This document shows positions 41,514-61,625 of a stretch of DNA of 64,000 nucleotides, piece after piece. The DNA comes from Candidatus Parcubacteria bacterium (GTDB lineage Bacteria > Patescibacteriota > Minisyncoccia > UBA6257 > 2-01-FULL-56-20), in assembly GCA_027450205.1 (NCBI GenBank), contig DAIDJL010000002.1, forward strand, positions 93,758 through 157,757, written 5' to 3'. The notes beneath the pieces were generated by a model. It was not told where the DNA came from. It ran no database searches and saw nothing but the letters and a program-made list of their open reading frames with translations. How positions within the stretch are numbered: the first letter of the stretch is position 1; each line of letters opens with the position of its first letter. The position numbers were made by a program, and so were the translations under genes.

Positions 41514-41569
41514 AGTTTTCCATTCCACTCAACTCCCCCTCCTTTGGCCAAATTCAGCAAACTCAAATA
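41514..41569. repeat. Copy 3 of the intergenic repeat family (long form)
   Basis: agttttccattccactcaactccccctcctttggccaaattcagcaaactcaaata. Confidence 0.6.
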
Positions 41570-41760: not shown

Positions 41761-41825
41761 AAAATAAAACAGGCATGTTCGCCGAACGGTCCATCTTGGG
41801 GAGGCGAACATGCCTGTTTTATTTT
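41761..41825. terminator. Long perfect inverted repeat acting as a bidirectional terminator-like hairpin
   Basis: 16-bp arms aacaggcatgttcgcc / ggcgaacatgcctgtt with a 19-nt loop, flanked by an A-run and a T-run. Confidence 0.5.
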
Positions 41826-41937
41826 CTATGGTGGAGCTGACCGGACTGACTGGCAAACTCTAGTAAACGAATTATATATTCAAGTGAAACTAATGGCGGT
41901 AATGTCCTAATGGCGGATGCTCCGAGATCCAAAATAG

Positions 41938-42465: not shown

Positions 42466-42501
42466 AGATAAATTCTAGCAAATTAAGGCGGAAATCCAAA
42501 A

Positions 42502-42557
42502 AGTTTTCCATTCCGCTCAACTCCCCTTCTTTTACGAAATTCGGCAAACTCAAAATA
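42502..42557. repeat. Copy 4 of the intergenic repeat family (long form)
   Basis: agttttccattccgctcaactccccttcttttacgaaattcggcaaactcaaaata; about 85% identical to copy 3. Confidence 0.6.
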
Positions 42558-42604
42558 ATGCAGATATATAAAGAAAATCGACCTCTTTCGGAGATCGATT
42601 TTCA

Positions 42605-42750
42605 TTCAAGTGGACATGGTTGAAAAAAGTTGGAACCGGGTGGAAAGTTGGATTTTGGAGTGGGGCGAGGCGATACAGGAAAGAAAAATGGCGAGGAATT
42701 ACTAGAGGTTCCTCGCCCCTTGGTACACATGATGGAGATTGAACCCTGTC
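42605..42750. repeat. Direct repeat D1 (about 140 nt)
   Basis: gtggacatggttgaaaaaagttggaaccgggtggaaagttggattttggagtggggcgagg...ggtacacatgatggagattgaac; paired with D2. Confidence 0.65.
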
Positions 42751-43458
42751 TTATTGTAATTGGGCGAGCGCTTCATTAATCCCCTTGAGCATTTCCTCGT
42801 AGAGCTCCTTAAGATTTACGCTATCTTCCGGCCTATGTTTTGCTTCGGCCAAAAATTGCGAAACAGGAATTTGCATGTCTCGAATAATTTCCTGGCTATG
42901 CTCCTGAATGTAACGGCTTCGCCCCTTCCATTCACCAGATGCTATTTTCTTTTTTACCTCACCCCAAAGGTCTCTCATCATGGCAGCACCGCTATTATCG
43001 CCCAAATCCTCATAAAGACCTTCCGCCCATCCATAGTCCTGCGTTAATAGAGCATAATCCAAACAAATTTGAAGAGCTGGACGATAAGATTTCTCCATTG
43101 GAAATTGATCTCTGAGCGTGTTAGAACCTTTTCGAACCTGATGTCCTAAAATGCCCCCAACCTCATACAAGTCTCCCCTGCTCAGAGCGGATGATACATT
43201 TTGCATTTCAAACATAACTCCCTTGGGAAGGATTTCTTCCCCTATCCTTTGCGCTAAATTTTCTGCGCCGAGTTCTCTATAGTCCTCAATAAGCTCGGCG
43301 GCAATAGTCATCTCAAAAGCATGGCTTTCTGACGCATGTTCCACCGCTGCTTCTATTCGCTCCTTGCAATGCTTTAAACTTTCAATCAAATCATGCCTTT
43401 CGACCTCAGATAATTGCCTATCCTTGCTAGAAGATTGTTCAAAATCATTTTGGCTCAT
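42751..43458 (-). CDS. Hypothetical acidic protein (235 aa) flanked by direct repeats D1 and D2
   Basis: ORF with protein-like composition; no family recognised. Confidence 0.45.
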   Translation of the reverse strand: MSQNDFEQSSSKDRQLSEVERHDLIESLKHCKERIEAAVEHASESHAFEMTIAAELIEDYRELGAENLAQRIGEEILPKGVMFEMQNVSSALSRGDLYEVGGILGHQVRKGSNTLRDQFPMEKSYRPALQICLDYALLTQDYGWAEGLYEDLGDNSGAAMMRDLWGEVKKKIASGEWKGRSRYIQEHSQEIIRDMQIPVSQFLAEAKHRPEDSVNLKELYEEMLKGINEALAQLQ

Positions 43459-43577
43459 ACTCCTATTGTGCCCCGCTTAAAACAAAAAGTATAGACGCAA
43501 TCGAAGGTTTTCTTTCTTAAAGGTTCTAAACTACAAACATCTGCATTCCAGCAAGATAGGTTTTATCTATCTTAAAA

Positions 43578-43720
43578 TCGCCGTGGACATGGTCGAAAAA
43601 AGTTGGAACCGGCTGGAAACATGGATTTTGGAGTGGGGTGAGGTGATACAAGATAGAAGAATGGCGAGGAATCATTAAAATTTCTTGCTGTTCGGTACAC
43701 ATGATGAAGATGGAACTTTC
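43578..43720. repeat. Direct repeat D2 (about 140 nt, roughly 85% identical to D1)
   Basis: gtggacatggtcgaaaaaagttggaaccggctggaaacatggattttggagtggggtgagg...ggtacacatgatgaagatggaac. Confidence 0.65.
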
Positions 43721-43838
43721 TTAAAGATTGAGATTTATCGAGACCCCTGCTGGGAGGGCGAATGAAACAAAACGGCTTATTGACTCGTATACCCAATAGG
43801 GTATAATGGTTGATAGGTCGATAAAACAATGATAAAGC

Positions 43839-44279
43839 ATGGAAATAATCTATTATCGGAGCGGGTCTGGCTCCTGCCCAGCCAGAGATTATATGGGCTT
43901 GCGCTATGGAATCAGGAGTGGCGACAAGCAACGGGTACGGGACAGCAAAGCAAAGCAACTTGCAAAAATACGGGCAGTGATTCAGATGGCGGCAGACAAA
44001 AATGGAAGGCCAGGTGGGATTTTTTCTTCCTCGCTCGATGGATATAATTTCCACGAATTAAAAAGCAGTGAAGGTAATAAAAATGAAAAACTGAGAGTCC
44101 TATACTTTAGCTATCATGGATCGCAGCTTGTTCTCTTGAACGCCTTCGATAAGCCAGACTTATACGAGAAAGGAAAGAAGAAAAAAATTGATAAGAAAAT
44201 TGAGTTGATTCTAAAGCTGACCAAAACGTATTACGATGATTTTTTAAAGAATCCAGACCATCACGAAAAATATGAATAA
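43839..44279 (+). CDS. Type II toxin, RelE/ParE superfamily (HigB / Gp49-like)
   Basis: KLRVLYFSYHGSQLVLLNAFDK motif; 8-nt overlap with the downstream HTH gene. Confidence 0.65.
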   Translation: MEIIYYRSGSGSCPARDYMGLRYGIRSGDKQRVRDSKAKQLAKIRAVIQMAADKNGRPGGIFSSSLDGYNFHELKSSEGNKNEKLRVLYFSYHGSQLVLLNAFDKPDLYEKGKKKKIDKKIELILKLTKTYYDDFLKNPDHHEKYE

Positions 44280-44775
44280 GAAAATTAACAAGAAAAAACA
44301 AGGGTTGGATTTAACCTTAAATCACCCCGCTTATAAGAAGTACTATGGCATGATGGATGCCCGGGTGAAACTTGCCGTTGAAATAAACGAAGCGAGAGTT
44401 GCAAAGGGTTGGTCTCAGCAGGAACTAGCGAGTGAGGCTGAAACCACACAAAAGGTAATCTCAAAAATTGAGAGTGGAGATACCAATCTTGGCTTCGATT
44501 TGCTGAATAAGCTTGCAAAGCCTCTCAATCTTAGGCTTCAAATCGGCACGACGGTTTTTGTAGCTGGTCTTGAACCCACCGTGGTTAATACAAATTATTG
44601 TGCCCCCGAATCAATTCCCGCGGGTATTTATCCCCGTGTATCAAGTGACATGAAATGGGAGTCATATATCCCGACAGGTATCCGCTTCATTGAGTCCCCC
44701 GCTTTGCTACAGATAACCTCTACCGAAGAAAAAACGGATACAAAAATTGAAATTAATGAAAAAGCCTATGCCTAA
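44272..44775 (+). CDS. XRE-family HTH antitoxin (HigA-like) with an extra C-terminal extension of about 90 aa
   Basis: GWSQQELASEAETTQKVISKIESG helix-turn-helix. Confidence 0.65.
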   Translation: MNKKINKKKQGLDLTLNHPAYKKYYGMMDARVKLAVEINEARVAKGWSQQELASEAETTQKVISKIESGDTNLGFDLLNKLAKPLNLRLQIGTTVFVAGLEPTVVNTNYCAPESIPAGIYPRVSSDMKWESYIPTGIRFIESPALLQITSTEEKTDTKIEINEKAYA

Positions 44776-45286
44776 ATCCCAGATAAGAAAAATTCAACAT
44801 GTATGGTCTATATTGGCCAGTGGCGTGAGCGTTGATCAGGAAAGCAATAATCTTAGCCTGTTTAATGTCATCGACCAAATTGTAATCCCCAAAAATCAAC
44901 TGGTGGAAATGCCTATTGTAACTGGAGAAAAGAAACCAGCCATTCCGATAGGTTTTGTTGTTGTATCTCAGTGGAGAAAGCTCCAAGAAAATATTGATGT
45001 AAAGGGGGACGCTAGGATAGAGTTGCTTGATCCGAGTGGTACCATGCGACAAAAAGCAGAGTTTACCATAAATCTTCCTGGTAAAATTGAACGATTTAGA
45101 TCGAGGGTGCAGTGGGGTGGAATTAGAGTAACTACCTCCGGAACTTACATCTTCAAAATTTCCCTCAAAGAGGAAGGGCAGGACGAATTCGTCCCCGTTG
45201 GAGAAGCTTATTTGAAAATTCAGATAATCGAGAATGCTTCAAAGGGCAGAAAAATAAACGTTAAGGTGCGCAAAAGGACTAAATAG
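44756..45286 (+). CDS. Hypothetical protein
   Basis: 176-aa ORF; start ambiguous (MKKPMPKSQ). Confidence 0.35.
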   Translation: MKKPMPKSQIRKIQHVWSILASGVSVDQESNNLSLFNVIDQIVIPKNQLVEMPIVTGEKKPAIPIGFVVVSQWRKLQENIDVKGDARIELLDPSGTMRQKAEFTINLPGKIERFRSRVQWGGIRVTTSGTYIFKISLKEEGQDEFVPVGEAYLKIQIIENASKGRKINVKVRKRTK

Positions 45287-45325
45287 CCGAGCGCTAGAAA
45301 TCTTCTAGCGATTCTGTGCGTTGAA

Positions 45326-45811
45326 ATGAACGAGGCGATACGTCAAAGCACATACGAACGGCGCAAGGCGGCAATTCTCGCTCGCATCCACATTAGCGAC
45401 TATATACGCCGTTACGCATGGGAAGTATTCGGAAACCAACGGAAGCCTGTTATGAGAACTCGCGCCGACGCCGATTATTATAAAAAAATGTTTAGCAATC
45501 CCATAGGCTCGCCTATACGCTCCCTCCTCCATATTTCTTCCGGTAATCTTTACAAATATAGCCAAGATGTAGATTATATCTGTTCAAATCTGGGCAGCGG
45601 TTTCGTATTTTATTTTTTATGCGTTTGGTGCGGCCGGAGGACAAAGTATCTTTATGTCGATCAAAGCCTTGAAGCATTACTCTGCCGGAAATGCATAAAG
45701 TTTCCATATCCACAACCCACACGACCCGAACGAAAGGCCTCCAGATATTTACGAAGGCATCCTGAGGTAATTCAACAACTCATCAATTCAGGCAAAATTC
45801 CCGCGTACTAA
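45326..45811 (+). CDS. Hypothetical Cys-cluster (zinc-ribbon-like) protein
   Basis: CVWCGRR ... CRKC; 161 aa. Confidence 0.35.
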   Translation: MNEAIRQSTYERRKAAILARIHISDYIRRYAWEVFGNQRKPVMRTRADADYYKKMFSNPIGSPIRSLLHISSGNLYKYSQDVDYICSNLGSGFVFYFLCVWCGRRTKYLYVDQSLEALLCRKCIKFPYPQPTRPERKASRYLRRHPEVIQQLINSGKIPAY

Positions 45812-45814
45812 GTC

Positions 45815-46372
45815 CTATTGAGACGGTACGCCAGTATACTGATCTCCAAAATCATCTACACAGGTAACTTTAAAATCATCAACGGTCGAAAAACTGTAAG
45901 AGCCTGGTATCGTTATTGTTTGTTGTTCTCCTGCGGGGGCAAAGGTGGTTTGTGAATATGGGATTGCTGCGCTACCTGCCGCCCACGTCCACGTGCAGGT
46001 CGATCGATTTCCGCGAGGTACAGTTAGGTAGAATGTGTCCCCGACACCCGAATAAACTGGCATTGTGTTGCCATTTGTGCTTGCGGTAGGTGTAGGAGAA
46101 ATCGGTGATGGGACGGACGGTTGGGTAGATGTATTGCTTGTAGGATATGCACTCACTACCCAAATAACGAGGCCGATGAACGCGATGAGCGCTATGAGAA
46201 GGGTTGTGAGAATGGTTTTGCCCGCCGCCTTCCTTCCAAACGCGAGCCATACACCTACTACGACCAACAGAAAGATAATAAATACCGTCATGGCGTTTGT
46301 TTTTAAATGATCTAATATCCTATCGCTTCTGCTTGTATATCCTCGCCTTCTTTCTGCGCCGACGCATAACAA
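45815..46372 (-). CDS. Hypothetical membrane-anchored secreted protein
   Basis: N-terminal TM helix (MTVFIIFLLVVVGVWLAF), Ser/Thr/Pro-rich linker, C-terminal Cys-containing domain. Confidence 0.4.
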   Translation of the reverse strand: MLCVGAERRRGYTSRSDRILDHLKTNAMTVFIIFLLVVVGVWLAFGRKAAGKTILTTLLIALIAFIGLVIWVVSAYPTSNTSTQPSVPSPISPTPTASTNGNTMPVYSGVGDTFYLTVPRGNRSTCTWTWAAGSAAIPYSQTTFAPAGEQQTITIPGSYSFSTVDDFKVTCVDDFGDQYTGVPSQ

Positions 46373-47454
46373 TCAAGTGAGTTCTGCTCTGCCTCAATTC
46401 CCCCCTCGCCTTCGCCTCGTGAGAGTGTCACTGAAGAGCATTGTTCATTTTGTGTTTGTTCGGATTCAATTTGAGATTCGGTACTGGGAGCTACCTGAAT
46501 AGCGTCATCAATTTTCTCCTGGTTCTGAGCGTCCTGTAAGGTGAGTTGGGCGGCACTCAATTGCGAGCTATACGCTTGATTAAGGTTATTTTGTTCGCCT
46601 TCTTCTTCCTGAAGAGGTATACCTCCTCCGCCTTCAATATCAGCTAAATCTTGCGCATACTGCTTTTCCAGATTTTCAAGATTCTGTGCCGAAGTATTAA
46701 CTGCGGCGGTGTCGAAATTTAGATAGGTTGCGTTTAGTTGGGGTACTGTTGGTTGCGCATAGGTTGGCTGAGGCGCAGGAGTATTGTAGGTTTCGGTTGG
46801 TTGCGAATAAGCTTCTGGTGCAGAGATGGTCAAAGCATTCCTCACTGTGAACGACCCGCCATCGGGATTGGTGACAGTGACACCGTATGTCCCCGCCGGA
46901 AGCGATCCTGGGTAACTTACCGACATTGAATTTGGCGAGGTGCTGTTAGTATTTAATTTCGCAAGACCTCCGATCATTAAAGTCGCGCCGTTTTGAAAGC
47001 CACTACCGACAATTGTAAGTGTATTAGAATTTCCCTGAACAATAATGCTTGGATTAATATAGCTGATGGAGGGCGATGAAACGGTTGGGCTGGTGGTTAC
47101 AACAGGCGCCTGTGAAGTGTCATTACACGAAGTCCCACTACACCCATTAGACGGATGAGGTGGAAGCGGACTAACGACTATTTGCTGGTGTGGGGTTGTT
47201 ATCGGTTCGGACGGGCCTGTTGGAGTAGTCGCTGATCCAGCGGTGAGCGCGGTGGATGTTTTTTGTGTGGACGGCGAGGTAGTTGCTTCTGGTGATGATG
47301 TTGAGTTCGCCTGTTGAACAGCGATTTGAGAAGTTTGACTAATTGGGGTCGTTGTAACGTTTTGAGGTGCCGCAGAAATAAACCCAATCAAAGAGACTAG
47401 GCCAACAAACGAGATGATTGCTTTATGGAATAACGAGCCAAAGAAATTGACCAT
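46312..47454 (-). CDS. Secreted Ser/Thr/Pro-rich surface protein with an IPT/TIG-like domain
   Basis: Signal/TM N-terminus; NPSIIVQGNSNTLTIVGSGFQNGATLMIGG ... GVTVTNPDGGSF; acidic Q/E-rich C-terminus. Confidence 0.55.
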   Translation of the reverse strand: MVNFFGSLFHKAIISFVGLVSLIGFISAAPQNVTTTPISQTSQIAVQQANSTSSPEATTSPSTQKTSTALTAGSATTPTGPSEPITTPHQQIVVSPLPPHPSNGCSGTSCNDTSQAPVVTTSPTVSSPSISYINPSIIVQGNSNTLTIVGSGFQNGATLMIGGLAKLNTNSTSPNSMSVSYPGSLPAGTYGVTVTNPDGGSFTVRNALTISAPEAYSQPTETYNTPAPQPTYAQPTVPQLNATYLNFDTAAVNTSAQNLENLEKQYAQDLADIEGGGGIPLQEEEGEQNNLNQAYSSQLSAAQLTLQDAQNQEKIDDAIQVAPSTESQIESEQTQNEQCSSVTLSRGEGEGGIEAEQNSLDCYASAQKEGEDIQAEAIGY

Positions 47455-47716
47455 GTTGATTCGTTAAGTTCTCGACTGGCGAACAAAAAGCTCCCAGCCA
47501 GCGATGCCTTTCGACACCCATATCCCTTTCGAGATATGACCGTTCATGGCGCTCTGACTAGGAGCTTTTTACCATGAACGGTATTTTGCGCCATGCACCA
47601 TCTTTGGCTGATAAACAGCTAGATAACAGTGTTTAGGCGACTGTATTAAATTGTTCCTTCAATATAGCACCAACTGAGCCTCTTGGTAAATGCGCACGAT
47701 TGTTTATAATATAGCC

Positions 47717-47989
47717 ATGCATTTCCCCGATCGTGCTGTACATTGTCCCGGATGCGGTAAGGTTATGGGGCGTTATAACCCCGAGAAGCCTTCGCCTTTG
47801 AAGTGTAGAAATCCTCGCTGTAAAGCTGAATTAGAGGTAACGATTATCAAAATGACCAAAGATGGGTCAGGAGCGGAATACATGAATTTTACGACCAGGG
47901 GAACGACAGCGAACTTAGTAACAACAAACCCCTCAGTTGACAATCCTTCAAATGGGTATATTATTACCAGCGAGGGGTTAGATAAATAA
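47717..47989 (+). CDS. Zinc-ribbon small protein
   Basis: CPGCGKVMG ... CRNPRCKAE; TATAAT immediately upstream; terminator at 48053-48107. Confidence 0.4.
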   Translation: MHFPDRAVHCPGCGKVMGRYNPEKPSPLKCRNPRCKAELEVTIIKMTKDGSGAEYMNFTTRGTTANLVTTNPSVDNPSNGYIITSEGLDK

Positions 47990-48309
47990 GTTTGAAAATT
48001 AGCTCGGTTTAAGAGGCGCTCAACCGGATACGATTGCCTGAGCGCGATAAAAAGACCTTTGGTAAGAGCATGTAGATTACATGCCCCCTGCCGGAGGTCT
48101 TTTTTTGTTTCTCCACGCCGAGCCATGCACGATGCTATCACTGGAAAAATTAAAGGAATTAGATACAGAAAATGACCTCTCGGACGAGGAACTTCTTGAG
48201 GTGCGCGCTGCTCTTGATCCCATTCTCGAAAAAATCCTAAATCATTATTTTGATAGCCTTTCAGAATAAACATCTTGCTATATTACAACTAAGCGGTTAG
48301 AATAAGAAT

Positions 48310-48462
48310 ATGGATAAAAAGACGATCAGTAAGGTTATGCGGGAAATGGGACGCCGCGGAGGGCTTGCATCCGTAAATGCCCGTAAGAAAAGCGGGAAAA
48401 TGAAGGAGTGGTCTCAAAATGCTATTAAGGCCCGACGCCGGAAGAAGAATAAAAAAACATGA
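48310..48462 (+). CDS. Small basic protein (50 aa) translationally coupled (ATGA) to the serine recombinase; possible recombination directionality / DNA-binding factor
   Basis: MDKKTISKVMREMGRRGGLASVNARKKSGKMKEWSQNAIKARRRKKNKKT; TTGCTA-17-TAGAAT promoter at 48277-48305; absent from the ORF track because it is under 60 aa. Confidence 0.4.
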   Translation: MDKKTISKVMREMGRRGGLASVNARKKSGKMKEWSQNAIKARRRKKNKKT

Positions 48463-50042
48463 GCGAACTTCACGCCTTAATTTACTGCCGCGTCTCATCT
48501 GAGCGACAAAAGAACGAGGGCCACGGCCTCGACAGCCAAGAGCAACGTTGCCGTCTTTATTGCGGCCAAAAGCAATACAAGGTTGAGCGTGTCTTTAGGG
48601 ATAGCTTTACGGGGGCCGGAGATTTTATGGAACGCCCAGCGATGGGAGAATTGCTCGCCTACCTCGACAAGCATCCGCACAGGGATGATTACGTTGTCGT
48701 TTTCGATGACCTCAAGCGATTTGCCCGCGACACCGTTTTTCATTTAAAGCTCCGGCGTGAATTTAAGGCACGGGGCGTTAAAGTGGAGTGCCTCAATTAT
48801 AAATTCGACGAATCCGAAGAGGGTGAATTTATCGAAACCGTTTTAGCCGCACAGGGCGAGCTTGAACGGAAACAGAATCGCCGCCAAGTTATCCAGAAGC
48901 AAAAGGCGCGCCTTGAAGCTGGCTATTGGCCTTTCTGTCCGCCGCCTGGCTATCGTCAGCCCAAGACGGTGGCTCATGGAAAACTTCTTACGCCATACGA
49001 GCCGGAAGCCACGATCGTGAGAACAGCCCTTGAGGGATTTGCGACAGATCGGTTTGAGACGCAAGCGGACATGGCCCGCTACTTGGGAGAACAAAACTTC
49101 ATCGGCAAAAGCAGGGTTCCCTTCCAGCTAGCAAATCGTCTCTTGGCCCGCGTATGGATATATGCCGGATTTATCCAATATGAGCCGTGGGAGGTAGTAC
49201 GACGGCAGGGCCACCATGAGCCAATCATCGACCTAGCGGCTTATCATAAGATTTTACGAAAGCTCGAAGGTCGCAGTCCGGTAAGGACGAGGGTAGATAT
49301 GCGCGAGGACTTTCCTTTACGCCACACACAGATCGCATGTGGCAATTGTGGTCGGCCCTTTACTGCTTCATATACGACCAAGAAAAAGGGCTATAGGCGG
49401 CCTTATTATCGTTGCGCCAATACTGCATGCCCTGAACACACAAAGAGCATCCCTGTCGAGCTTATAGAAACACAATTTAAAACCATGTTGCAGGAGATCC
49501 GCCCGAAGCCCCTCATCCTCAAAATCAGCGAAGCGATGCTCTACGAGAAATGGGAGCGGCGTGTGTCCGAGCGGGCTAATGCCGAAAAGAAAGAGGTTGG
49601 CGAAATTGCAGGGATTCAGGCAGAAATACACGACCTCTCAAAGCTTGCACGGAAAGCGACCAGTGAACGCGTCCGGCGGGAGTATGAGAAGCAGATCGAG
49701 GAACTAGCGGCGAAGGAGGAAAAATTGGCGGAGAAAAATGATCCTACAAAGAAGCCAAAAATTGAGTTTAGAACCGCTCTACAAATGGTATTCGATTACC
49801 TAAAAGACCCATATTCTAAATGGGTTGAGGGCGATTTGAGTGAGAAAAATCTGGTGCTGAACCTCGTTTTTGAGGGTCTCGTTTTCTATGACCGAGGATT
49901 TGGATTTAGAACCGCTCTTTTGTGCCTTCCTTTAAGGGTTTTTGAGCATTTTACTACCTCTAAATCACAGGGTGTGGAAGCGGGCGGAATCGAACCGCCG
50001 TGTAAAGATAATGCCGATGGGCCGTCTACGAGCGTAGTTTAG
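48459..50042 (+). CDS. Large serine recombinase (resolvase/invertase N-terminal domain + recombinase domain + zinc ribbon)
   Basis: YCRVSSERQ catalytic serine motif, CGNCG ... C ... C zinc ribbon, coiled coil; 527 aa. Confidence 0.85.
   Translation: MSELHALIYCRVSSERQKNEGHGLDSQEQRCRLYCGQKQYKVERVFRDSFTGAGDFMERPAMGELLAYLDKHPHRDDYVVVFDDLKRFARDTVFHLKLRREFKARGVKVECLNYKFDESEEGEFIETVLAAQGELERKQNRRQVIQKQKARLEAGYWPFCPPPGYRQPKTVAHGKLLTPYEPEATIVRTALEGFATDRFETQADMARYLGEQNFIGKSRVPFQLANRLLARVWIYAGFIQYEPWEVVRRQGHHEPIIDLAAYHKILRKLEGRSPVRTRVDMREDFPLRHTQIACGNCGRPFTASYTTKKKGYRRPYYRCANTACPEHTKSIPVELIETQFKTMLQEIRPKPLILKISEAMLYEKWERRVSERANAEKKEVGEIAGIQAEIHDLSKLARKATSERVRREYEKQIEELAAKEEKLAEKNDPTKKPKIEFRTALQMVFDYLKDPYSKWVEGDLSEKNLVLNLVFEGLVFYDRGFGFRTALLCLPLRVFEHFTTSKSQGVEAGGIEPPCKDNADGPSTSVV
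49976..50003 (-). other. tRNA 3'-end-like fragment (T arm plus acceptor strand) embedded in the recombinase 3' end
   Basis: Minus strand reads ggcgg-ttcgatt-ccgcc-cgcttcc-a; no matching 5' half was found. Confidence 0.4.
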
Positions 50043-53591: not shown

Positions 53592-54014
53592 GTGGATTTC
53601 GGATATATCCTCTTATTGTCCTTTGGCCTATTCGGCCTCGTTGCATTGATCCGCAAACACAAGCTTATTACCATTGATGTGGTAAGTTCCCTCGTGGCCC
53701 GGGCCGATTTTAAGGCAAAAGGCGCGGGCGATTCCTACGTTGTCTACAATTCCGATCTCGGTTGTGACTATATCCGCCGCCAGGATGGGAAACAAACCCT
53801 TATGTTCAAAGCGGCGTTCTATCGCGGAAAACTGGAGGCGGAGTTCGATAGCGACGGGAAGCTTATCTTGTGGAAAGACAAAAAGGGGCCCAAAAAACGA
53901 ACCATCCCCATTCGGGACTGCTACCACCATGAAGTGTGGCTTCTGGAAAATGTTCTGGGAACGATCCAAAACAGGATCCTTTTAATGGAAGATCGGGGCG
54001 CTCGCACGGCATGA
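53592..54014 (+). CDS. Hypothetical membrane-anchored protein (GTG start)
   Basis: AGGAGGTGG SD; N-terminal TM helix; 140 aa. Confidence 0.4.
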   Translation: MDFGYILLLSFGLFGLVALIRKHKLITIDVVSSLVARADFKAKGAGDSYVVYNSDLGCDYIRRQDGKQTLMFKAAFYRGKLEAEFDSDGKLILWKDKKGPKKRTIPIRDCYHHEVWLLENVLGTIQNRILLMEDRGARTA

Positions 54015-54025
54015 GCGCCCTATTT

Positions 54026-55810
54026 TTATTTATTTTTAAGAAAGCCCAGCATCTTCGCAAGGGGCCAGGCGTTGATAATATCTTTACGCTCAGCCCAGCC
54101 GCGGCGAGCCTGGGCAATGCCGCACTCAAGGAAGGCAAAGTGCGCCGCGGCGTGCGCGTCGGAATCAATGGACATTTTGACCCCGGCCTCCACGCACTTG
54201 CGGATATATTCATCTTTGAGATCGCTGCGCTCGGGAAGCGCATCGATCTCCAAAATGGTCCCCGTCATTTTCGCGGCCGCGATGATCTCATCTATATCTA
54301 TATCGTATGGCGCGCGCTTATTGATGAGCCGCCCCGTCGGATGAAAGAAAATATCCACGTTCGGATTTGATATGGCGCGCTTCACGCGACTGGTCTGTTC
54401 CGCGCGCGGAAGGTTGAAGAACGAATGCACCGATACGCCGACGACGTCGAGCTTTGAAAGCGTCTCATTGTCGAGGTCAAGCGTGCCATCCCTTAAAATA
54501 TCGCACTCGGTGCCTTTCAGTATTTTTATTTTTCCGGCCAGCTTTTTATTCACCGCGTCGATCTCCTTCCATTGCTCGCGGATGCGCTTCTCGTCCAGGC
54601 CATGCGTCATTGCAAGACGCTTGGTATGATCGGTAATGACGATATATTCCAGTCCGCGCTTCATTGCGGCACGCGCCATCACCGCTATGGAATCGGCGCC
54701 GTCGGTCCAGTCGGTCTGCACCTGAAGATCGCCGTGCAGATCATCATAGCCGATCAATTTCGGTAAACCGCGCGCACCGCCTGATATTTTCTTCTCAAAT
54801 TCCCGCGCCGCCGCCTCCACCTCGCCCGTGTTCTCGCGAAGCTCCGGCTCGGGATACGCCATGCGAAGCACTTTATATACCTCCTCTTCCGTCCTGCCCG
54901 CCACGCGCACGCCGGTCTTCTCGCCCTTTTTGTTCACCTTAAAAAGGCCATATTCATTGAGCGTCAACCCCAGTTTGTTGGCGCGCGCACGGATGACGAC
55001 GTTGTGCTCTTTCGATCCGGTGAAATAATTGAGTGCCGCGCCGTACGATTCCTTTGGCACCACGCGCAGGTCAATATTCAATCCGGGCTTGACCTTTATG
55101 GACGACTTTGTGGCGCCATGCGCGATGACCGTCATGATGCCGGGTGTTTTGGAAACAAATTCATCCATGACGACCTTCGGTCTGGACGAGACCGCAAGAA
55201 TATCCAGGTCCCCCATCGTATCCTTGCGGCGACGCGCCGATCCTGCAATGGTCACGCGCTCCACGCCGGCAACAGCCGCAAGCCGGGCTTCGATCTCGCG
55301 GATCTGCGGCAGCATGAGGCCGGTGATGAACCGCGATCCCGAGCCGCGTGCGAACTCGATGCCTTTCAGGATCTTCTCCTCGCTCTTTTTGCCAAAACCC
55401 TCCAGCGCGCCGATCTTCCCCTGCCTTGCCGCCGCTTCAAGCTCTTTTAAGTTGCGCACGCCGAGCTCTTTATATAATTTCTGGATAGATTTGGGACCGA
55501 GTCCCTCCACGCGCGCGAGTTCATCCAGGCGCACGGGCGTCGCCTTCTTCAGTTTTTCGTATTCCGTGCTGCGCCCCTTCGTTACGAGCTCCTCTATGAT
55601 TTCCGCGATGGACCGGCCCACGGCGGGGATCTCCCTGAGCGCCTTCACGCCGCCCCTGGCATATATTGCCGACGCCTCCTCCTCGAGTGCGCCCACCGTC
55701 TCTGCCGCCTTCTCGAACGCGCGCGGCTTGAACTGCACATGCTGCATCGCCAAATATTCGCCGATCTGGCGCAAGATCTCGGCGATAGACTGGTTGTTCA
55801 TGTCTGCCAT
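54026..55810 (-). CDS. polX: DNA polymerase X family protein with C-terminal PHP domain
   Basis: HhH and pol-beta nucleotidyltransferase (GSARRRKDTMGDLDIL) followed by PHP (HTKRLAMTHG ... HPTG ... DSDAH); start at MADMNNQ. Confidence 0.8.
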   Translation of the reverse strand: MADMNNQSIAEILRQIGEYLAMQHVQFKPRAFEKAAETVGALEEEASAIYARGGVKALREIPAVGRSIAEIIEELVTKGRSTEYEKLKKATPVRLDELARVEGLGPKSIQKLYKELGVRNLKELEAAARQGKIGALEGFGKKSEEKILKGIEFARGSGSRFITGLMLPQIREIEARLAAVAGVERVTIAGSARRRKDTMGDLDILAVSSRPKVVMDEFVSKTPGIMTVIAHGATKSSIKVKPGLNIDLRVVPKESYGAALNYFTGSKEHNVVIRARANKLGLTLNEYGLFKVNKKGEKTGVRVAGRTEEEVYKVLRMAYPEPELRENTGEVEAAAREFEKKISGGARGLPKLIGYDDLHGDLQVQTDWTDGADSIAVMARAAMKRGLEYIVITDHTKRLAMTHGLDEKRIREQWKEIDAVNKKLAGKIKILKGTECDILRDGTLDLDNETLSKLDVVGVSVHSFFNLPRAEQTSRVKRAISNPNVDIFFHPTGRLINKRAPYDIDIDEIIAAAKMTGTILEIDALPERSDLKDEYIRKCVEAGVKMSIDSDAHAAAHFAFLECGIAQARRGWAERKDIINAWPLAKMLGFLKNK

Positions 55811-55856: not shown

Positions 55857-56534
55857 TCACGCCACCGTATCTCCCGGCTTCCGCTCGACCGCCGTCTCGG
55901 CGGCATTCACCGCCGCGCGCGTGGACGTGGTCGGCTTCGGCAGGATCAGGTCCGGCACCGCAAGCAGCACGAACGCAGCGATGAACGCCATGATGCCGGC
56001 GCCCACGAAGACCACGCTGTAGCCGAGCGTGTCGGCGATGACGCCGCCGAGGAATCCCGTGACGCCCGCGCCGATCCCGCTCACCGACGAATCGAGCGAC
56101 CAGTCGAGGGAGATGGCGTCCTTGTCCAGGTGCCGCGAATAGATCGTCGGCCACGATGCGTAGTAGAACGCGAAAGCGATCGCCTGGATGGCATGGATCG
56201 CATAGAGTTCCCACACCTGCCTGACCCAGACCATTGCGATCGCCGAGATGCCCACAAGCAGGAGCCCGCCGACGAGCGCCATGAAATCGTCGTGTTCGCC
56301 GGGAATGCGGTCGAGCATGCTCGCGATCGGGATCTGCGCGACCGAACGGATGATCCAATAGATCGCCGCCGCGATGCCGACGACCGTCAGCGTCCCCCCG
56401 ACGACGCGCTGGATGATGAACACCGAGAACACCGGATCGATGAGCCCCCATCCGGCGAGCAAAAAGAAATCCGAGATGACAAAATATTTCACCACCCGCC
56501 CGACTTTTACATTGATGTTTACCTTGATACGCAT
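55857..56534 (-). CDS. MFS-like half-size transporter (6 TM) or truncated MFS gene
   Basis: PIASMLDRIPG MFS motif A-like sequence; about 6 TM helices only; 225 aa. Confidence 0.45.
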   Translation of the reverse strand: MRIKVNINVKVGRVVKYFVISDFFLLAGWGLIDPVFSVFIIQRVVGGTLTVVGIAAAIYWIIRSVAQIPIASMLDRIPGEHDDFMALVGGLLLVGISAIAMVWVRQVWELYAIHAIQAIAFAFYYASWPTIYSRHLDKDAISLDWSLDSSVSGIGAGVTGFLGGVIADTLGYSVVFVGAGIMAFIAAFVLLAVPDLILPKPTTSTRAAVNAAETAVERKPGDTVA

Positions 56535-56548: not shown

Positions 56549-59056
56549 TTATTGGCTTACAAAATCGAACGCCCCATCTTTGACCACGCACTGGATCTTC
56601 GACCCCTTCACGATCTTTTTCGCAAGTAGCGCCTCGGAGAGCGGCGCGCGGATGTATTCGTCGATCGCGCGCCGGAGCGGCCGCGCGCCGTACTGCGGGT
56701 CGTAGCCAAGCTTGGCGATGCGCGTGATCGCCTCGGTGCTGAATGAAAGCACGACGCCCTGCGCCCTCAGCGCAGTAACAAGCTCATTCACGTTGATCTG
56801 CGCGATCTGCGGAAGCTCGCTCATTTCCAGATTCTTGAACACGATTATCTTGGAAAATCGGTTAAGCAGTTCCGGCTTGAGCACGTCCACCAGCCGCGCC
56901 TTCAGATATTCGGCCACATCAGCCATTTTTTCACCTTTCACAAGGGCCTCGTTGATGATGTCCGAATGCGCGTTGGATGTGGCAATGATGATCGTGTTCG
57001 TAAAATCCACGACATGCCCCACGTTGTCGGTAAGCCGCCCGTCGTCGAGCACCTGCAGGAAGAGGTTCAAAATATCCGGGAATGCTTTTTCAAACTCATC
57101 AAGGAGCACCAGGCTGTACGGCTTCTCGCGGATCGCATCGGTGAGCGCGCCACGCACCGTGCCGTCCGGCGACCCGATAAAGCGGTAGAAGCTCGTCTTG
57201 TCCTGGTATTCCGTCATATCGAAACGCACCATCATTTTTTCCGAGCCGAACTGGATCGCCGCAAGCTGTTTTGCAAGCTCCGTCTTCCCCACGCCGGTCG
57301 GCCCCACAAACAAAAAGCTTGCGATCGGACCGCCTCTCCGCGTCAGTCCACTGCGATATTCGCGCAACGCCTGCGCCACCGCCTTGACCGCCTCATCCTG
57401 CCCAATGATGTGATCGTGTATCAGCTCTTCCATGTGCAGCAACTTCTCCGCTTCGTCGCCTTCCGCCTCATGCATCGGGATGTTCACTTTTTCTTCGGCG
57501 ACAGCCGTCACGCGGTCGGGAGTGACCGCCTTCTCGCCCCGACGCTCTGCGTCCACGATCGCGCTTTTCAACAATTCTTCGGCGCTTGAGGGAAGGAATT
57601 TGCCATGGAGGTACTTCTTGGCAAGCAGCACCGCGCGCTTGATCGCGCCAAAGCTCACTGCGATCCGGGACTGCCGTTCAAGCAAAAAACTTTCGTACGT
57701 CAACACTTTTTCCGCATCCGCTTCCGAGATCTCATTCACCATGATGGGTTCGAACATGCCGGCGAAATCACTGCGCGGTTCGATGAATTCCTTGAACTCC
57801 TTCGGGTACGAACTGCCGATGACCGGAAATTGGTTGGAAGTGATGACGGGCATCAGCGCGTCGGCGGCCGAAAGGTATGCGGCTCCGGAGGTGCGTACCA
57901 GGTTGTGGATGTCGGGGATGTAAAGAATGATGTTCCCCGCCGTGACGATCTCGTCCACGACCGCCTTGATGCGCGCGTTCAATTCTTCCGGCGGCGCGCC
58001 GGCGATCAGGCTCTGCAGTTGAAGCCCCACGAGCCGCCGGTCAAAGAGCCCCTGCGGCACGTCGTCCTTTACCAACCGGAATGCCAGATGGCGGACGATG
58101 GACTCCTTGCCGATCCCCGCCTCTCCTATGAGCAGCGCATTCGGTTCCACCGGCCGCGCGAGCGTCTCCACCAGCCGCTCATATTCCGCCTCGTGGCCGA
58201 TGAGGAATCCCGACTCGCGATCGCGCGCCATATCGGTGAAATCCATGCCGTAGTTATCGAGTGTCGGCGTCGGCCGCGACGTCCACGCGCGGTTCATGAT
58301 GCGATGCTGAACGACATGATGCGTTTCCGGCGCAAAACCCCCAAGCACGGACGGCAGGCGCCCGAACAGTCCGTCCCGCCCGGCGAGCGCGCTGAAAATA
58401 AGCGCGCGCTCAAGATCGCCTTCCTCTATATTGAACAGCGAGAACAACCGGTCGAGCGATTCGTTTCCCATGCCCGGGAGCGCCGAGAAAAGGTCGGCGG
58501 GCTTGATGAAATCATGGCCGGCGCTCGTCGCCGAAGCGAACGCCCGCACCGAAAGCGGCTCCACGAGCGATGCATAATTTTCCGGCGGGCCGGCCTCTTC
58601 CATCAACGCCTCCAGTTTTGCCTTGAACTCCTCTGGCTTCACATCCAGACGCCGGAGACCGTCCACGACCTGCGGCAGCTCGAAAAGTCGGCTCGTAAGT
58701 TCCAAAAGAAAGCTTTTCCCCATGATGACGCTGCGATCCACCGCACGCTCGATCACGGCAAAGGATGCCCGGTCCATTACCGTCGCAAGGTTCACTCGCC
58801 CCGCCGCAGGCAGCTCGGAGATCGGCGTGTCACCTTCACCGCGATGGATCAAAAGATCGATTACTATAAGCGATAGAAAAAGCCCGATATAAAAAAGCGT
58901 CCGGATGTCATACGAAAGCAAGAACATGAACATCGCCACGACAAGCACCAGAGAAAAAATATAACTCACCACGCGGACGAGCGAACGTCCTGCGATCGTC
59001 ATGCGCAGACGCGGGTCATCGAAATAAAATTCGCGCTTAGAAATATTTTGCGGCAT
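56549..59056 (-). CDS. Clp/Hsp100-family AAA+ ATPase (ClpC/ClpB-like) with two N-terminal TM helices and a degenerate first nucleotide-binding domain
   Basis: Clp_N-like repeats; NBD1 Walker A reads GEAGIGKES and Walker B reads IPDIHN (both non-canonical). NBD2 is canonical: GPTGVGKTE and LLDEFEKA, with sensor and arginine motifs. Start at MPQNISK. Confidence 0.8.
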   Translation of the reverse strand: MPQNISKREFYFDDPRLRMTIAGRSLVRVVSYIFSLVLVVAMFMFLLSYDIRTLFYIGLFLSLIVIDLLIHRGEGDTPISELPAAGRVNLATVMDRASFAVIERAVDRSVIMGKSFLLELTSRLFELPQVVDGLRRLDVKPEEFKAKLEALMEEAGPPENYASLVEPLSVRAFASATSAGHDFIKPADLFSALPGMGNESLDRLFSLFNIEEGDLERALIFSALAGRDGLFGRLPSVLGGFAPETHHVVQHRIMNRAWTSRPTPTLDNYGMDFTDMARDRESGFLIGHEAEYERLVETLARPVEPNALLIGEAGIGKESIVRHLAFRLVKDDVPQGLFDRRLVGLQLQSLIAGAPPEELNARIKAVVDEIVTAGNIILYIPDIHNLVRTSGAAYLSAADALMPVITSNQFPVIGSSYPKEFKEFIEPRSDFAGMFEPIMVNEISEADAEKVLTYESFLLERQSRIAVSFGAIKRAVLLAKKYLHGKFLPSSAEELLKSAIVDAERRGEKAVTPDRVTAVAEEKVNIPMHEAEGDEAEKLLHMEELIHDHIIGQDEAVKAVAQALREYRSGLTRRGGPIASFLFVGPTGVGKTELAKQLAAIQFGSEKMMVRFDMTEYQDKTSFYRFIGSPDGTVRGALTDAIREKPYSLVLLDEFEKAFPDILNLFLQVLDDGRLTDNVGHVVDFTNTIIIATSNAHSDIINEALVKGEKMADVAEYLKARLVDVLKPELLNRFSKIIVFKNLEMSELPQIAQINVNELVTALRAQGVVLSFSTEAITRIAKLGYDPQYGARPLRRAIDEYIRAPLSEALLAKKIVKGSKIQCVVKDGAFDFVSQ

Positions 59057-59384
59057 AGATAAGGATGACCGCCGGAATGGCAAGCCAGATAAGGTAAACG
59101 ATCGCGAACACGAACGCAAGGACAAGATAGAACACGCCGCCGATGACGATCCGCGCCGACCGGAACACAATTCCCAAAATCCTCCCGATGATGCTGTAAT
59201 CCTTATAGAGCGGCTCGAAAAAATGTCGCAGCGTGATAGCGAGCGCGAACGACCGGTCTGCTGCCGTCATGGTGGCCATAAAACGCCGCCCGATATCGCG
59301 CGAACCATCCACATACCAATGATGAAAAAAATCTAAGAACCGGTAAAGCAAACGGCGCGTAAGGTATACCACGGAAAAATCCAT
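59037..59384 (-). CDS. Hypothetical small membrane protein, overlapping the start of the Clp ATPase gene (probable operon partner)
   Basis: 115 aa with two C-terminal TM helices; 20-nt overlap with the downstream Clp ATPase gene. Confidence 0.4.
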   Translation of the reverse strand: MDFSVVYLTRRLLYRFLDFFHHWYVDGSRDIGRRFMATMTAADRSFALAITLRHFFEPLYKDYSIIGRILGIVFRSARIVIGGVFYLVLAFVFAIVYLIWLAIPAVILIYAAKYF

Positions 59385-59429: not shown

Positions 59430-60092
59430 CTAAAAGAGGCCCGCTTGTTCCGTCTTTTCCGGATCGGTTTTTTTGGATTCGCGGGCTGCCGGAAGCCCGG
59501 AGGCGAACGCGGGCGGCATCTCTATTTTGAATTCGCCCGCTAGCACGCTCGGGATCTTTTTAAAATCGCCGCGGAGCGTCTCCATCATTTGAGTGGAACG
59601 GAGCGCCGCGGCGGGGTGATATACCGGGAAGATAATACGGCCGTCAATACTGAGCGGCCGGCCGTGGTCGCGGGTGATCTTTGCCTCCGGCAAAAAATAG
59701 TTCATTGAAAACCGCCCGAGCGTCACAATGAGATCCGGATCGATCACTTCGATCTGGCGCGTGAGGTACGGCTTATATGCTTCAATCTCCGCGGGCAGCG
59801 GATCGCGATTCTCGGGCGGGCGGCGCTTGACGATGTTCGTAATATACGTTTCTTCGCGCTTCCAACCAAGATCGCGGATCATATTGTCCAAAAGCTGTCC
59901 GCCGCGCCCAACGAACGGCCGGCGCAGGCGGTCTTCGTTCACGCCCGGCGCCTCGCCGATGAACATCACCCTACAATCCACGTCCCCTTCGCCAAACACA
60001 AGATTCGCCTCGGCGCGCAACGGCAGCTTCACATTGGCCGCCATCTCCGCCTCGATCTTTTTTAGCTCCGCGATCTTGTCCGCTTTATCCAT
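59430..60092 (-). CDS. Uracil-DNA glycosylase, family 4
   Basis: GEAPG ... FPVYHPAA motifs; 220 aa. Confidence 0.85.
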   Translation of the reverse strand: MDKADKIAELKKIEAEMAANVKLPLRAEANLVFGEGDVDCRVMFIGEAPGVNEDRLRRPFVGRGGQLLDNMIRDLGWKREETYITNIVKRRPPENRDPLPAEIEAYKPYLTRQIEVIDPDLIVTLGRFSMNYFLPEAKITRDHGRPLSIDGRIIFPVYHPAAALRSTQMMETLRGDFKKIPSVLAGEFKIEMPPAFASGLPAARESKKTDPEKTEQAGLF

Positions 60093-60156: not shown

Positions 60157-61077
60157 TTAATTATCACCCATATGTTCATCCGACCTTCCGGCCTGCGGAA
60201 CAACGACAAACGGAGTGGTTGTCGTTGCACTGATGGAGGCGCCCAAAACAGCGCCATCGGCGGAGCTGGGTCCGTCGGAGCCCGTCCCGTCCCGGGTCGA
60301 TGTCGTTCCGCCCCCGCCATCGCCACGACTCCCGCTCCCGCACTGGAGATTGAATTGCCTCAGGGCATCCGGATGCGCAACAAGCTCCCCGTCAAGATGA
60401 CCGAAGAGGACGCTGGATGTACTGCTGTCAAAAGCGGCGCAGTACACATTCAGGGGGTTGGATCCCCGTTCCGCGGGCGGCGGGGTCGTTACCGATAGCG
60501 ACGGCGATCCCTGGCCGTGGCCCCGGTTACCGTGGCTGAAAACACCGGCGGAGCCATGAGTGGTAATTCCGACAGCGGTCGAAGTGTCGGCGGGATTGCC
60601 GGCCGAAGCGCCGGTGATCGCGGCGAGAGAGCTGCTGATCTCGCTGTCCAGGTCATCCGTTAGTGCGGGGATGAGCGTGCTCGTCGGATGCGACGCCCGC
60701 AAAGCATCGATCTCCTTTACGCGCCGCACGGCGAACGTCGCTTCAAGCCGCGGTTTCTGCGATGCAGGCGTGAACGTAAGCTGGATATTCTCGCTGAGGC
60801 GCTTCAGTGGATAGAGCGGATTCGTCGCGGAGACGTTCGCGGTGTCGGCATATACGGACATACCGGCAGCCACGCACACTACCGCCATCGCAACGACGCC
60901 AATCTTAAAGAACATCGCCATGCCTGCCGTGCGCTCCATGCGCTCGGTCGCAAGCGCGGACGCGTCAAAAGCGGCCAGAAACTGTTCCCTGCCTTTCTCT
61001 ATAAATTCCTTGCGCGGCGCGAGGCTCTTTTGCGCCGCACGTGGAAGCCCTTCGGTTTTGCGGATAAAAAATTTCAT
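60157..61077 (-). CDS. Putative anti-sigma factor / membrane protein cotranscribed with the ECF sigma factor
   Basis: ATGA overlap with the sigma gene stop; single TM helix; Ser/Thr/Gly-rich extracytoplasmic tail. Confidence 0.45.
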   Translation of the reverse strand: MKFFIRKTEGLPRAAQKSLAPRKEFIEKGREQFLAAFDASALATERMERTAGMAMFFKIGVVAMAVVCVAAGMSVYADTANVSATNPLYPLKRLSENIQLTFTPASQKPRLEATFAVRRVKEIDALRASHPTSTLIPALTDDLDSEISSSLAAITGASAGNPADTSTAVGITTHGSAGVFSHGNRGHGQGSPSLSVTTPPPAERGSNPLNVYCAAFDSSTSSVLFGHLDGELVAHPDALRQFNLQCGSGSRGDGGGGTTSTRDGTGSDGPSSADGAVLGASISATTTTPFVVVPQAGRSDEHMGDN

Positions 61078-61625
61078 TTGAATTCCTTTTGTATCTTCTC
61101 TTTAAGGCGAAGCGCTGCCACGCGCAACGTCCCTTCGGGTTTTTCCAGAATATTCGCAATATCTTTATACGACATCTCCGCGGCGAACCGCAGTTCAAAG
61201 AGTTCCTGCTCTTCGCGCGAGAACGTGCTCACCACCATCTTTAGTCGGCGATATTCCAGCACGTTGTCCGTGTCCGGGATCTCCCCCACTGACATCGCGG
61301 CAACTTCGTCGTCCTCGAACTGTGAGAACGGGGCCGCTTTTTTTTGGCGGTAATGATCAATGAGCGTGTTGCGCGCCATCCTCCAGAACCATACCGTGAA
61401 CCTTCCCTTTTTTTCGTCGAAACTCCCGATATGCTCGATCAATTTTATAAAAATCTCCTGGGAAAGATCTTCTGCAGCCTCGCGCGAGCCGGTTCGGGAA
61501 AGTACGAACCCGTAAAGCTTTGGCGCAAGCTCGTCATATAGCGCTCCCCCCGCCGCACGGCTGCCCTTCTTCATGCGGGCCACCAGGCGGTCCAAGCGGT
61601 CGCGTTGTAAATCCTTAAATTCCAT
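61074..61625 (-). CDS. ECF-type RNA polymerase sigma-70 family factor
   Basis: Region 2 (LSQEIFIKLIEHIGSFD) and region 4 (MSYKDIANILEKPEGTLRVAALRLKEK); 183 aa. Confidence 0.8.
   Translation of the reverse strand: MEFKDLQRDRLDRLVARMKKGSRAAGGALYDELAPKLYGFVLSRTGSREAAEDLSQEIFIKLIEHIGSFDEKKGRFTVWFWRMARNTLIDHYRQKKAAPFSQFEDDEVAAMSVGEIPDTDNVLEYRRLKMVVSTFSREEQELFELRFAAEMSYKDIANILEKPEGTLRVAALRLKEKIQKEFK

Follow-up and report, generated by a model that had tools for sequence, protein, structure and literature searches.

Clp/Hsp100 proteins are textbook double-ring threading motors. In ClpX, ClpB and Hsp104, mutation of the pore-loop tyrosine abolishes or cripples unfolding or disaggregation and, to our knowledge, at least one ring retains an aromatic pore-1 loop in all well-studied threading unfoldases. 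Among type-II AAA+ proteins, one of two stacked rings can be inert and serve as a scaffold, as in NSF (D2, the second AAA+ module) and in Pex1/Pex6 (D1, the first). Torsin, a AAA+ protein related to Clp/HSP100, has no aromatic pore loops; it has an N-terminal hydrophobic membrane domain and the transmembrane cofactors LAP1 and LULL1 (PMC5425593). Here we describe a two-gene locus within a 64-kb stretch of DNA from a Candidatus Parcubacteria bacterium (the whole stretch is referred to below as the window). It encodes a predicted membrane-anchored class-I Clp/Hsp100-type ATPase of 835 aa, with an apparently degenerate D1 and a D2 that retains its catalytic motifs, and a small membrane protein of 115 aa.

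Both genes are located on the minus strand. The Clp-type protein lies inside an open reading frame (ORF) spanning 56549–59170, and its gene, defined from the ORFs together with Pfam, NCBIfam and HMMER alignments, covers 56549–59056, with an ATG at 59056 (MPQNISK) and the stop codon at 56549–56551 included. The partner gene, identified from the ORF list and a homologue search, covers 59037–59384. A preliminary description of the locus had proposed a membrane-tethered Clp protein with a degenerate first ATPase domain, in an operon with a small membrane protein whose gene overlaps the Clp start by 20 nt. The overlap is exact (59037–59056), and the Clp ATG sits within the small-gene codons ...ATC TAT GCC.... 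Orthologous loci, from which the genomic context described below is taken, were collected with a profile of the small protein as the starting point and one genome per species, which gave 80 loci.

Architecture of the anchored Clp protein

By fold, the Clp protein is clearly a member of the Clp/Hsp100 superfamily. Homologue searches returned 664 proteins at E≤1e-10, and the best 120 of these are nearly all 800–860 aa long, with ~100% coverage. ClpC is the best match by both sequence (E=3e-116) and fold (Foldseek E down to 6e-53), and the target-normalised template modelling scores reach 0.85 against ClpC1/ClpB. In the HMMER alignment to Bacillus subtilis ClpC, which also defines the motif registers used below, D1 aligns with ClpC residues 158–402 (domain E=3.5e-36) and D2 with residues 464–801 (E=2.8e-78). 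The protein has two tandem ClpA/B/C-type AAA+ modules and a D2-small domain. The M-domain is missing: the two ClpC stretches abut at query residues 503/504, and ClpC 402–464 is skipped. Query residues 265–823 are collinear, in a single stretch, with residues 168–733 of ClpA, which has no M-domain either, and D1-small consists of just four helices (aa 445–524) in the AlphaFold2 model.

The N-terminus is predicted to form a transmembrane hairpin. A cytoplasmic peptide with the conserved motif FDDPRLRMTxAGR (aa 1–26, 58979–59056) is followed by transmembrane helix 1 (aa 27–47, 58916–58978; mean Kyte-Doolittle hydropathy 2.45), a six-residue loop and transmembrane helix 2 with an invariant D67 (aa 54–70, 58847–58897; mean hydropathy 2.62). 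AlphaFold2 models the corresponding helices at residues 21–47 and 52–70, with a predicted local distance difference test (pLDDT) score of 80–89. The HRGEGDxPISELP motif, with invariant H71 and D76, comes directly after the second helix (58808–58846). Both flanking motifs are conserved among 118 close members; P15 is kept in at least 90% and R16 in all, and G23 is also among the near-invariant or fully invariant positions. The two hydrophobic helices that the preliminary description placed ahead of the Clp_N repeats are thus borne out, and the hairpin, hydrophobic in all 80 species representatives (median Kyte-Doolittle hydropathy 1.9–2.0), is a family-defining feature. Lysine and arginine are enriched ahead of the first helix, and by the positive-inside rule both hairpin ends would lie on the cytoplasmic side, together with the ATPase.

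The NCBI gene call for this protein (P0001) is 817 aa long and starts at M19. The deposited sequence is probably truncated by 18 residues at its N-terminus, because these residues hold the conserved P15 and R16 and their codons contain the conserved 20-nt overlap. Since P15 and R16 are conserved upstream of M19, the upstream start is supported, and internal initiation with loss of the anchor is ruled out. An exhaustive HMMER search with residues 1–265 yielded 210 cluster representatives, of which the full-length ones measure 804–846 aa, and all are aligned from about query residue 5–12. The concern raised at the outset, that the hydrophobic segment might disappear if an internal start codon were used, is answered by this conservation of the N-terminus and of the motifs around the hairpin.

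Residues 89–226 (58379–58792) correspond to a divergent Clp_N domain. Clp_N is below the Pfam threshold in this protein; a profile derived from 28 divergent members of the family matches, among PDB sequences, the N-domains of ClpC (E=3e-12) and the whole N-domain of ClpA (aa 9–136, E=2e-8). AlphaFold2 predicts eight helices within residues 90–225. Judged by these profile matches, the segment is the Clp_N double repeat of class-I Clp/Hsp100 proteins. The linker between the N-domain and D1 (aa 227–262, 58271–58378; LPSVLGGF ... HRIMNRAWTSRP) is predicted to be disordered (pLDDT 33–45). H251, M254, N255, A257, W258, T259 and P262 are invariant in it, and 25% of its columns are conserved in at least 90% of the sequences. 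These conserved linear motifs are situated right above the entrance to the D1 pore and could represent a partner-binding or autoinhibitory element.

The catalytic elements of D1 (aa 263–525, 57482–58270) were compared with those of ClpC. Its Walker A, GEAGIGKES (58100–58126), differs from GEPGVGKTA of ClpC by a glutamate in place of the Mg-binding threonine, the substitution first noticed in the preliminary description. In Walker B (IILYIPDI, 57908–57931), ILYIPDIH is aligned without gaps to ILFIDELH of ClpC. The change had been given as DE to DI; that register is off by one residue, the true change is DE to PD, and the absence of a canonical Walker B stands. Apart from this slip, the substitutions are not the product of mis-positioned motifs. 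The pore loop is trimmed from AGTKYRGEFE in ClpC to AGAPP-EELN (57977–58003), and the pair of Arg fingers in ALERRFQ is lost in DFAGMFE (57749–57769).

These lesions hold across the family. The GK-E form of Walker A is present in 74 of the 80 species loci, and Walker B reads PD in 65, PE in 8 and PN in 5 (78/80 together). No locus has an arginine at the D1 finger positions (0/80), and an aromatic residue occurs in the D1 pore loop in 2/81. Among distant members, a set of 33 full-length proteins with identities down to 27% in the N-terminal region, even the Walker A lysine can go (GVGMD, SSEQD, GSEMD). In the large subdomain of D1, the mean identity to the query is nevertheless 69%, and 40% of columns are at least 90% conserved. 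With this conservation, second only to that of D2 large, the apparent pseudo-ATPase D1 is not decaying; it is under strong purifying selection and seems to be maintained as a structural or regulatory ring. The prediction of a pseudo-ATPase D1 ring is in this way extended to 80 species, in which both the anchor and the degenerate D1 are conserved.

D2 and the ClpB_D2-small domain (aa 546–835, 56552–57421) are recognized by Pfam (AAA_2, 5.7e-49; ClpB_D2-small, 1.5e-21). From the ClpC alignment and the family tallies, Walker A (GPTGVGKTE, 57278–57304), Walker B (LVLLDEFE, 57089–57112, with LLDEFE as its core), Sensor-1 (ATSNA, 56969–56983), the Arg finger (LLNRFS, 56852–56869) and Sensor-2 (GARPLRR, 56669–56689) are essentially invariant, in the distant members as in the 80 species. 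D2 large is the most conserved domain, with 80% mean identity and 51% of columns at least 90% conserved, and its catalytic site appears to be intact. Class-I proteins have two competent nucleotide sites; here, D1 reads as dead and D2 as fully intact. The exception within D2 is pore loop 1 (GSPDGTVRG, 57149–57175), where GSPPGYVGYDEGG of ClpC is replaced by GSPDGTV----RG, four residues shorter and with a threonine in place of the gripping tyrosine. It is aromatic in 0/81, and the distant members are alike in this respect. The earlier statement that the second domain is canonical therefore applies to Walker A and B, both sensors and the Arg finger, but not to the pore loop. Compared with the aromatic pore-1 loops of class-I proteins (KYR in D1, GYVG in D2), both rings of this family are depleted of aromatics, and substrate engagement is therefore argued to be non-canonical.

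A ClpP-docking loop, another feature that the preliminary description suggested looking for as IGF or LGF, is not present. No [LIV]-G-[FL] tripeptide is encoded in 56876–56977, nor does one occur in the family consensus across 80 species (SNAHSDIINEALxKGESMADIAEYL), and YVGF-NVQDET of ClpC is aligned with VKG followed by a gap. The NCBIfam models give scores far below their cutoffs, the highest being that of ClpB TIGR03346 (479 bits vs 1232), followed by ClpA TIGR02639 (426 vs 993), ClpB PRK10865 (395 vs 1417), ClpV/TssH TIGR03345 (368 vs 885) and ClpA PRK11034 (328 vs 1350). Because there is neither a ClpP loop nor an M-domain, nor two active rings, nor aromatic pores, the protein is neither a ClpC/ClpA nor a ClpB, despite database names such as 'ATP-dependent Clp protease ATP-binding subunit ClpC/ClpA'. 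Full-text literature searches turned up no description of the family.

The comparison with individual relatives is as follows. ClpC (from B. subtilis and S. aureus, and ClpC1 of M. tuberculosis) shares the Clp_N double repeat, the two AAA+ modules and D2-small. Unlike ClpC, the present protein has a transmembrane hairpin and a dead D1 (GK-E, DE to PD, no Arg fingers), and it lacks the M-domain through which MecA/McsB control is exerted, the VGF loop for ClpP and both pore tyrosines. It resembles E. coli ClpA in its collinear D1-D2, in the absence of an M-domain and in a Clp_N aligned over its full length, but differs in lacking the IGL loop for ClpP and the pore tyrosines, in its dead D1, in its membrane anchor and in having a small partner. 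ClpB/Hsp104 likewise have no ClpP-docking loop, being ClpP-independent, and contain the ClpB_D2-small domain; in contrast to them, the present protein has no coiled-coil M-domain for DnaK coupling, a single active ring, no pore tyrosines and a membrane anchor.

Outside these soluble relatives, Torsin is also Clp/HSP100-related and has no pore aromatics, an N-terminal hydrophobic anchor and a transmembrane partner (PMC5425593); the resemblance is functional and does not imply membership. Torsin has a single AAA+ module, of the HCLR clade, no Arg finger of its own, a luminal location in the eukaryotic endoplasmic reticulum/nuclear envelope and AAA-like cofactors, whereas the present protein has two modules, keeps its Arg finger, would be cytoplasmic and is paired with a small helical protein. 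In FtsH and Msp1/ATAD1, as proposed here, an N-terminal anchor puts the entry face of the ring at the membrane, but these belong to the classical AAA+ clade and have a single module with aromatic pore loops and, in FtsH, a protease domain. NSF and Pex1/Pex6, with their inert rings, belong to other families, are soluble and have aromatic pore loops in the active ring.

Three other identities were considered and rejected. ClpV/TssH is disfavoured by its score and by the neighbouring genes, which encode uracil-DNA glycosylase (UDG), major facilitator superfamily (MFS), PolX and NUDIX proteins and include no type VI secretion genes. ClpB-like proteins of anti-phage defence (Dodola DolB, PDC-M37B) give only partial PADLOC matches, to D2 (aa 521–704), and the conserved housekeeping context is fixed in 80 species. 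Membership of the Torsin family does not agree with the two modules, the protein's own D2 Arg finger (LLNRFS) and a partner that is not AAA-like, and the Pfam Torsin model reaches E=0.14 on a homologue (P0049).

The small membrane partner and conservation of the gene pair

The small partner has between 327 and 614 homologues, nearly all of 113–149 aa and all hypothetical except for one stray name. No match to Pfam, NCBIfam or PADLOC models was obtained, and at E≤10 just a chance-level hit to DUF2207_C appeared (E=0.68). A profile search with distant members retrieved 614 proteins, the best 120 of which are all 115–143 aa long, and no informative domain fusion was seen among these. Invariant positions include W23-Y24, P58-L59-Y60-x-D62-Y63, R75, Y86 and W100.

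In the AlphaFold2 model (pLDDT 89.7), a helix at residues 5–46 and a short helix at 48–53 are followed by a loop containing PLYKDY and a long helix at 65–114. The N-terminal helix is amphipathic (median Kyte-Doolittle hydropathy 0.34). A single continuous stretch of 34 residues (aa 79–112) is strongly hydrophobic, and the segment preceding it has a net charge of +3. Fold searches returned generic hairpins only, and the modelled helical hairpin is not AAA-like. The protein had been taken to have two transmembrane segments; this is not established, as the one hydrophobic stretch is part of one modelled helix. We read the partner as an N-in protein with a cytoplasmic helical region of about 78 residues and one long membrane helix, as the model and the charge distribution suggest.

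An anchored Clp gene is located directly downstream of the small gene, on the same strand, in all 80 loci, and its product aligns from the first 1–12 residues. With the start assigned as above, 51 of the 80 junctions are overlaps (exactly 20 nt in 38), 22 are gaps of up to 30 nt and 7 are larger gaps. The proposed operon with a small membrane protein is in keeping with this operon-like coupling. The association extends to four divergent Clp members (L003, L087, L088 and L089), which have 27–36% identity in the N-terminal region and still have the small gene immediately upstream, with a 4-nt overlap in L087 and L089 and, in L003, with the small gene ending 1 nt ahead of the Clp start. Of these divergent loci, three lack PolX and two have an inverted UDG, and the MFS gene is absent. 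The small-gene/Clp pair is the only arrangement that is universal among the loci examined.

In a mirror-tree analysis controlled for D1, the partial correlation with the partner is 0.46 for the transmembrane region and 0.41 for Clp_N, compared with 0.11 for D2. The signal, suggestive only, is stronger for the N-terminal parts and D1 than for D2.

The surveyed organisms, where named, are Paceibacterota, Parcubacteria, Liptonbacteria and Minisyncoccia; the remainder are generic Patescibacteria metagenome-assembled genomes (MAGs). Complete Paceibacteria chromosomes with the locus include OY970354.1, OY970358.1, OY970382.1, OY970175.1 and OY970126.1. L013, L026, L031, L032 and about 20 other loci come from MAGs titled 'uncultured Candidatus Saccharibacteria', and have a Paceibacteria-type locus with 54–75% identity. 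The titles given by the submitters may be generic or wrong. On a Joint Genome Institute contig (L088:4651-5000), the partner gene is uncalled, and a homologous ORF of 117 aa fills the 'intergenic' gap before Clp. The small-partner family is probably under-annotated in metagenomes.

Genomic surroundings

The commonest gene order is UDG, small gene, Clp, MFS (in 41 loci) and PolX. The upstream neighbour in the window is a family-4-type UDG gene (59430–60092, minus strand; Pfam UDG 2.5e-33), which is found upstream in 68 of the 80 loci and has a divergent orientation in L088 and L089. Downstream, 14 nt after the Clp stop codon, begins a half-size MFS_1-like gene (55857–56534, minus strand) encoding ~225 aa with about 6 transmembrane helices, which matches positions 4–175 of the 347 in the Pfam MFS_1 profile (2.2e-17). 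It occurs in 41/80 loci, among them L001 and L006 but not L003 and L005, and is an optional third gene that may serve as an accessory component or may just happen to be adjacent. The usual downstream neighbour is a PolX-type DNA polymerase gene with a PHP domain (54026–55810, minus strand; Pfam DNA_pol_B_thumb, HHH_8 and PHP), present in 54/80 loci and absent from L087, L088 and L089. A functional tie of the Clp pair to these flanking DNA-repair genes (UDG, PolX, NUDIX) is unsupported, as they are lost or inverted in divergent members where the small-Clp pair is kept. The adjacency of UDG and PolX looks like lineage synteny, and we do not claim them as functional parts.

Scans for promoters and terminators around the operon gave counts equal to the shuffled expectation, with one convincing hairpin only, past PolX. 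This hairpin (53995–54021) is a strong, GC-rich one of 10 bp with T-runs, located between the convergent ends of PolX (minus strand) and a 140-aa ORF (plus strand), and is probably a bidirectional terminator that ends the string of genes from UDG to PolX. Directly upstream of UDG and on the same strand (60157–61625, minus), an extracytoplasmic function (ECF)-type sigma factor gene (Sigma70_r2/r4_2) overlaps a downstream gene for a DUF5667 membrane protein, the probable anti-sigma factor. A sigma-70 r2/r4_2 gene is also found near the locus in L003.

Two blocks of the window have a lower GC content. The first, within 40000–50042 (42–47%, compared with ~55–58% elsewhere), is followed by a large serine recombinase gene of 527 aa (48459–50042, plus strand; Pfam Resolvase and Zn_ribbon_recom), and a mobile element or prophage has probably integrated here, near rplT. 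A Resolvase gene of 528 aa is found at the corresponding position in L001, beyond L20/bPH_2, suggestive of an integration hot-spot. The second block, at 1–6000 (~40%), contains ORFs that resemble sugar-nucleotide and glycosyltransferase genes by their first residues only, and may be a horizontally acquired surface-polysaccharide cluster.

Mechanistic readings and significance

The Clp protein probably works differently from its known relatives. We see an even chance that the two genes form a conserved module of Paceibacteria, within the candidate phyla radiation (CPR), in which an Hsp100-derived, single-motor membrane remodeller acts with a small partner and engages its substrate in a non-canonical way. 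The Clp protein would form a hexamer, by analogy with other Hsp100s, with the N-domain/D1 face of the ring towards the inner face of the membrane, the same polarity as in FtsH and Msp1. D1 would be a structural spacer or lever and D2 the sole motor. The clients may be membrane-embedded or membrane-proximal proteins, or the partner's own assembly. The positively charged cytoplasmic helical region of the partner and its PLYxDY loop could act as an adaptor, regulator or co-anchor, making contact with the ATPase at its juxtamembrane motifs or its N-domain. Engagement could consist of low-force pulling on segments that are already unfolded or lipid-embedded, or of a non-threading conformational switch, and the module would be independent of ClpP and of control through a DnaK-type M-domain.

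Several points weigh against this proposal. Physical contact between the partner and the Clp protein is deduced from the coupling of their genes, and hexamer formation and orientation are likewise drawn from analogy. The mirror-tree signal is weak, and is confounded by phylogeny and by rate differences. The survey started from the small protein, and Clp genes without a partner were looked for in a few divergent Clp loci. The AlphaFold2 model of the Clp protein is of moderate quality (pLDDT 76.5, predicted template modelling score 0.58). D1 may still bind nucleotide, as the Walker A lysine is retained in the close family. Finally, the non-aromatic pore loops speak against threading as a means of extraction, which leaves the pulling version of the mechanism weak.

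This last point also bears on what the module does in the preliminary description, which called it a membrane-tethered unfoldase or disaggregase with a single active ring. The tether, the dead D1, the single D2 motor and the operon are upheld, but the label of unfoldase or disaggregase is doubtful because the M-domain and the ClpP loop are missing and the pore aromatics are lost in both rings. An ordinary unfoldase or disaggregase, in which D2 alone threads membrane-proximal proteins in the manner of Msp1/FtsH-type extraction without a protease, would explain the retention of Clp_N, the intact D2 catalytic site and an N-terminal anchor followed by the substrate-entry face. We regard it as unlikely: both pore loops are shortened, the pore tyrosine is absent (aromatics in 0/81 for D2 and 2/81 for D1), no M-domain is available for Hsp70 coupling, and mutation of these tyrosines is known to abolish unfolding or disaggregation in ClpB, Hsp104 and ClpX. 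Still less credible is the publicly annotated role of a plain ClpC/ClpA-type ATP-binding subunit that delivers substrates to ClpP. The database names and the ClpC matches, best among PDB entries in both sequence and fold, are on its side; against it are the missing [LIV]-G-[FL] tripeptide (VGF of ClpC opposite K-G-gap, ALxKGESM in the family consensus), NCBIfam scores below the ClpA and ClpB cutoffs, the dead D1, the missing pore tyrosines and the absence of clpP from the 64-kb window, where clpX is not found either. The possibility of an annotation artefact or a decaying gene, with a soluble protein made from an internal methionine (M94) or a D1 that is eroding in a reduced genome, draws on the start ambiguity introduced by the NCBI call from M19 and on the variable D1 Walker A of distant members. 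It is effectively refuted by the hairpin and flanking motifs, kept at the protein level in 80 species and 210 cluster representatives, by the conserved overlap with the small gene and by the rank of D1 large as the second most conserved domain.

A Torsin-like, non-threading switch has a firmer basis than these, and we retain it as a tentative alternative. ATP turnover in D2 would drive assembly and disassembly or a rigid-body motion, which would be passed through the inert D1 and the transmembrane hairpins to the partner and the bilayer, resulting in membrane remodelling, gating or regulation of a membrane process, for example in lipid or envelope handling. The shortened pore-1 loops, almost devoid of aromatics in D1 and entirely so in D2, the conserved inert scaffold of D1, the small transmembrane partner at every locus examined and the precedent of Torsin (PMC5425593) are all consistent with such a switch. 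However, D2 keeps its Arg finger (LLNRFS) and Sensor-2, so that the active site is complete without a cofactor, and the partner has no AAA-like fold. The full Clp_N domain, which binds substrates or adaptors, is also kept, suggesting a bound client, and the Torsin model of Pfam reaches just E=0.14 on a homologue. In its most specific form, which we put forward as a speculative possibility, the module would be a prokaryotic counterpart of the Torsin principle: a membrane-embedded ATP switch that does not thread, with D1 as lever, D2 as motor and 12 transmembrane helices per hexamer, dependent on its dedicated small partner and serving a membrane or envelope function specific to Paceibacteria. 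If true, it would be a new mechanistic class within Clp/Hsp100.

The family, conserved across many species of Paceibacteria, keeps the Hsp100 scaffold, changes nearly all elements of the textbook mechanism and adds an anchor and a partner. In hundreds of genomes, the annotations 'ClpC/ClpA' and 'Clp protease ATP-binding subunit' give a misleading picture. The module is a natural experiment on the capabilities of a lone D2 ring that has no aromatic paddles, and bears on the mechanism of Torsin. Both proteins are of a size suited to heterologous expression and cryo-electron microscopy. Paceibacteria are ultra-small, lipid-auxotrophic episymbionts with a little-known membrane and envelope biology, and the gene pair would represent a conserved membrane machine specific to the CPR.

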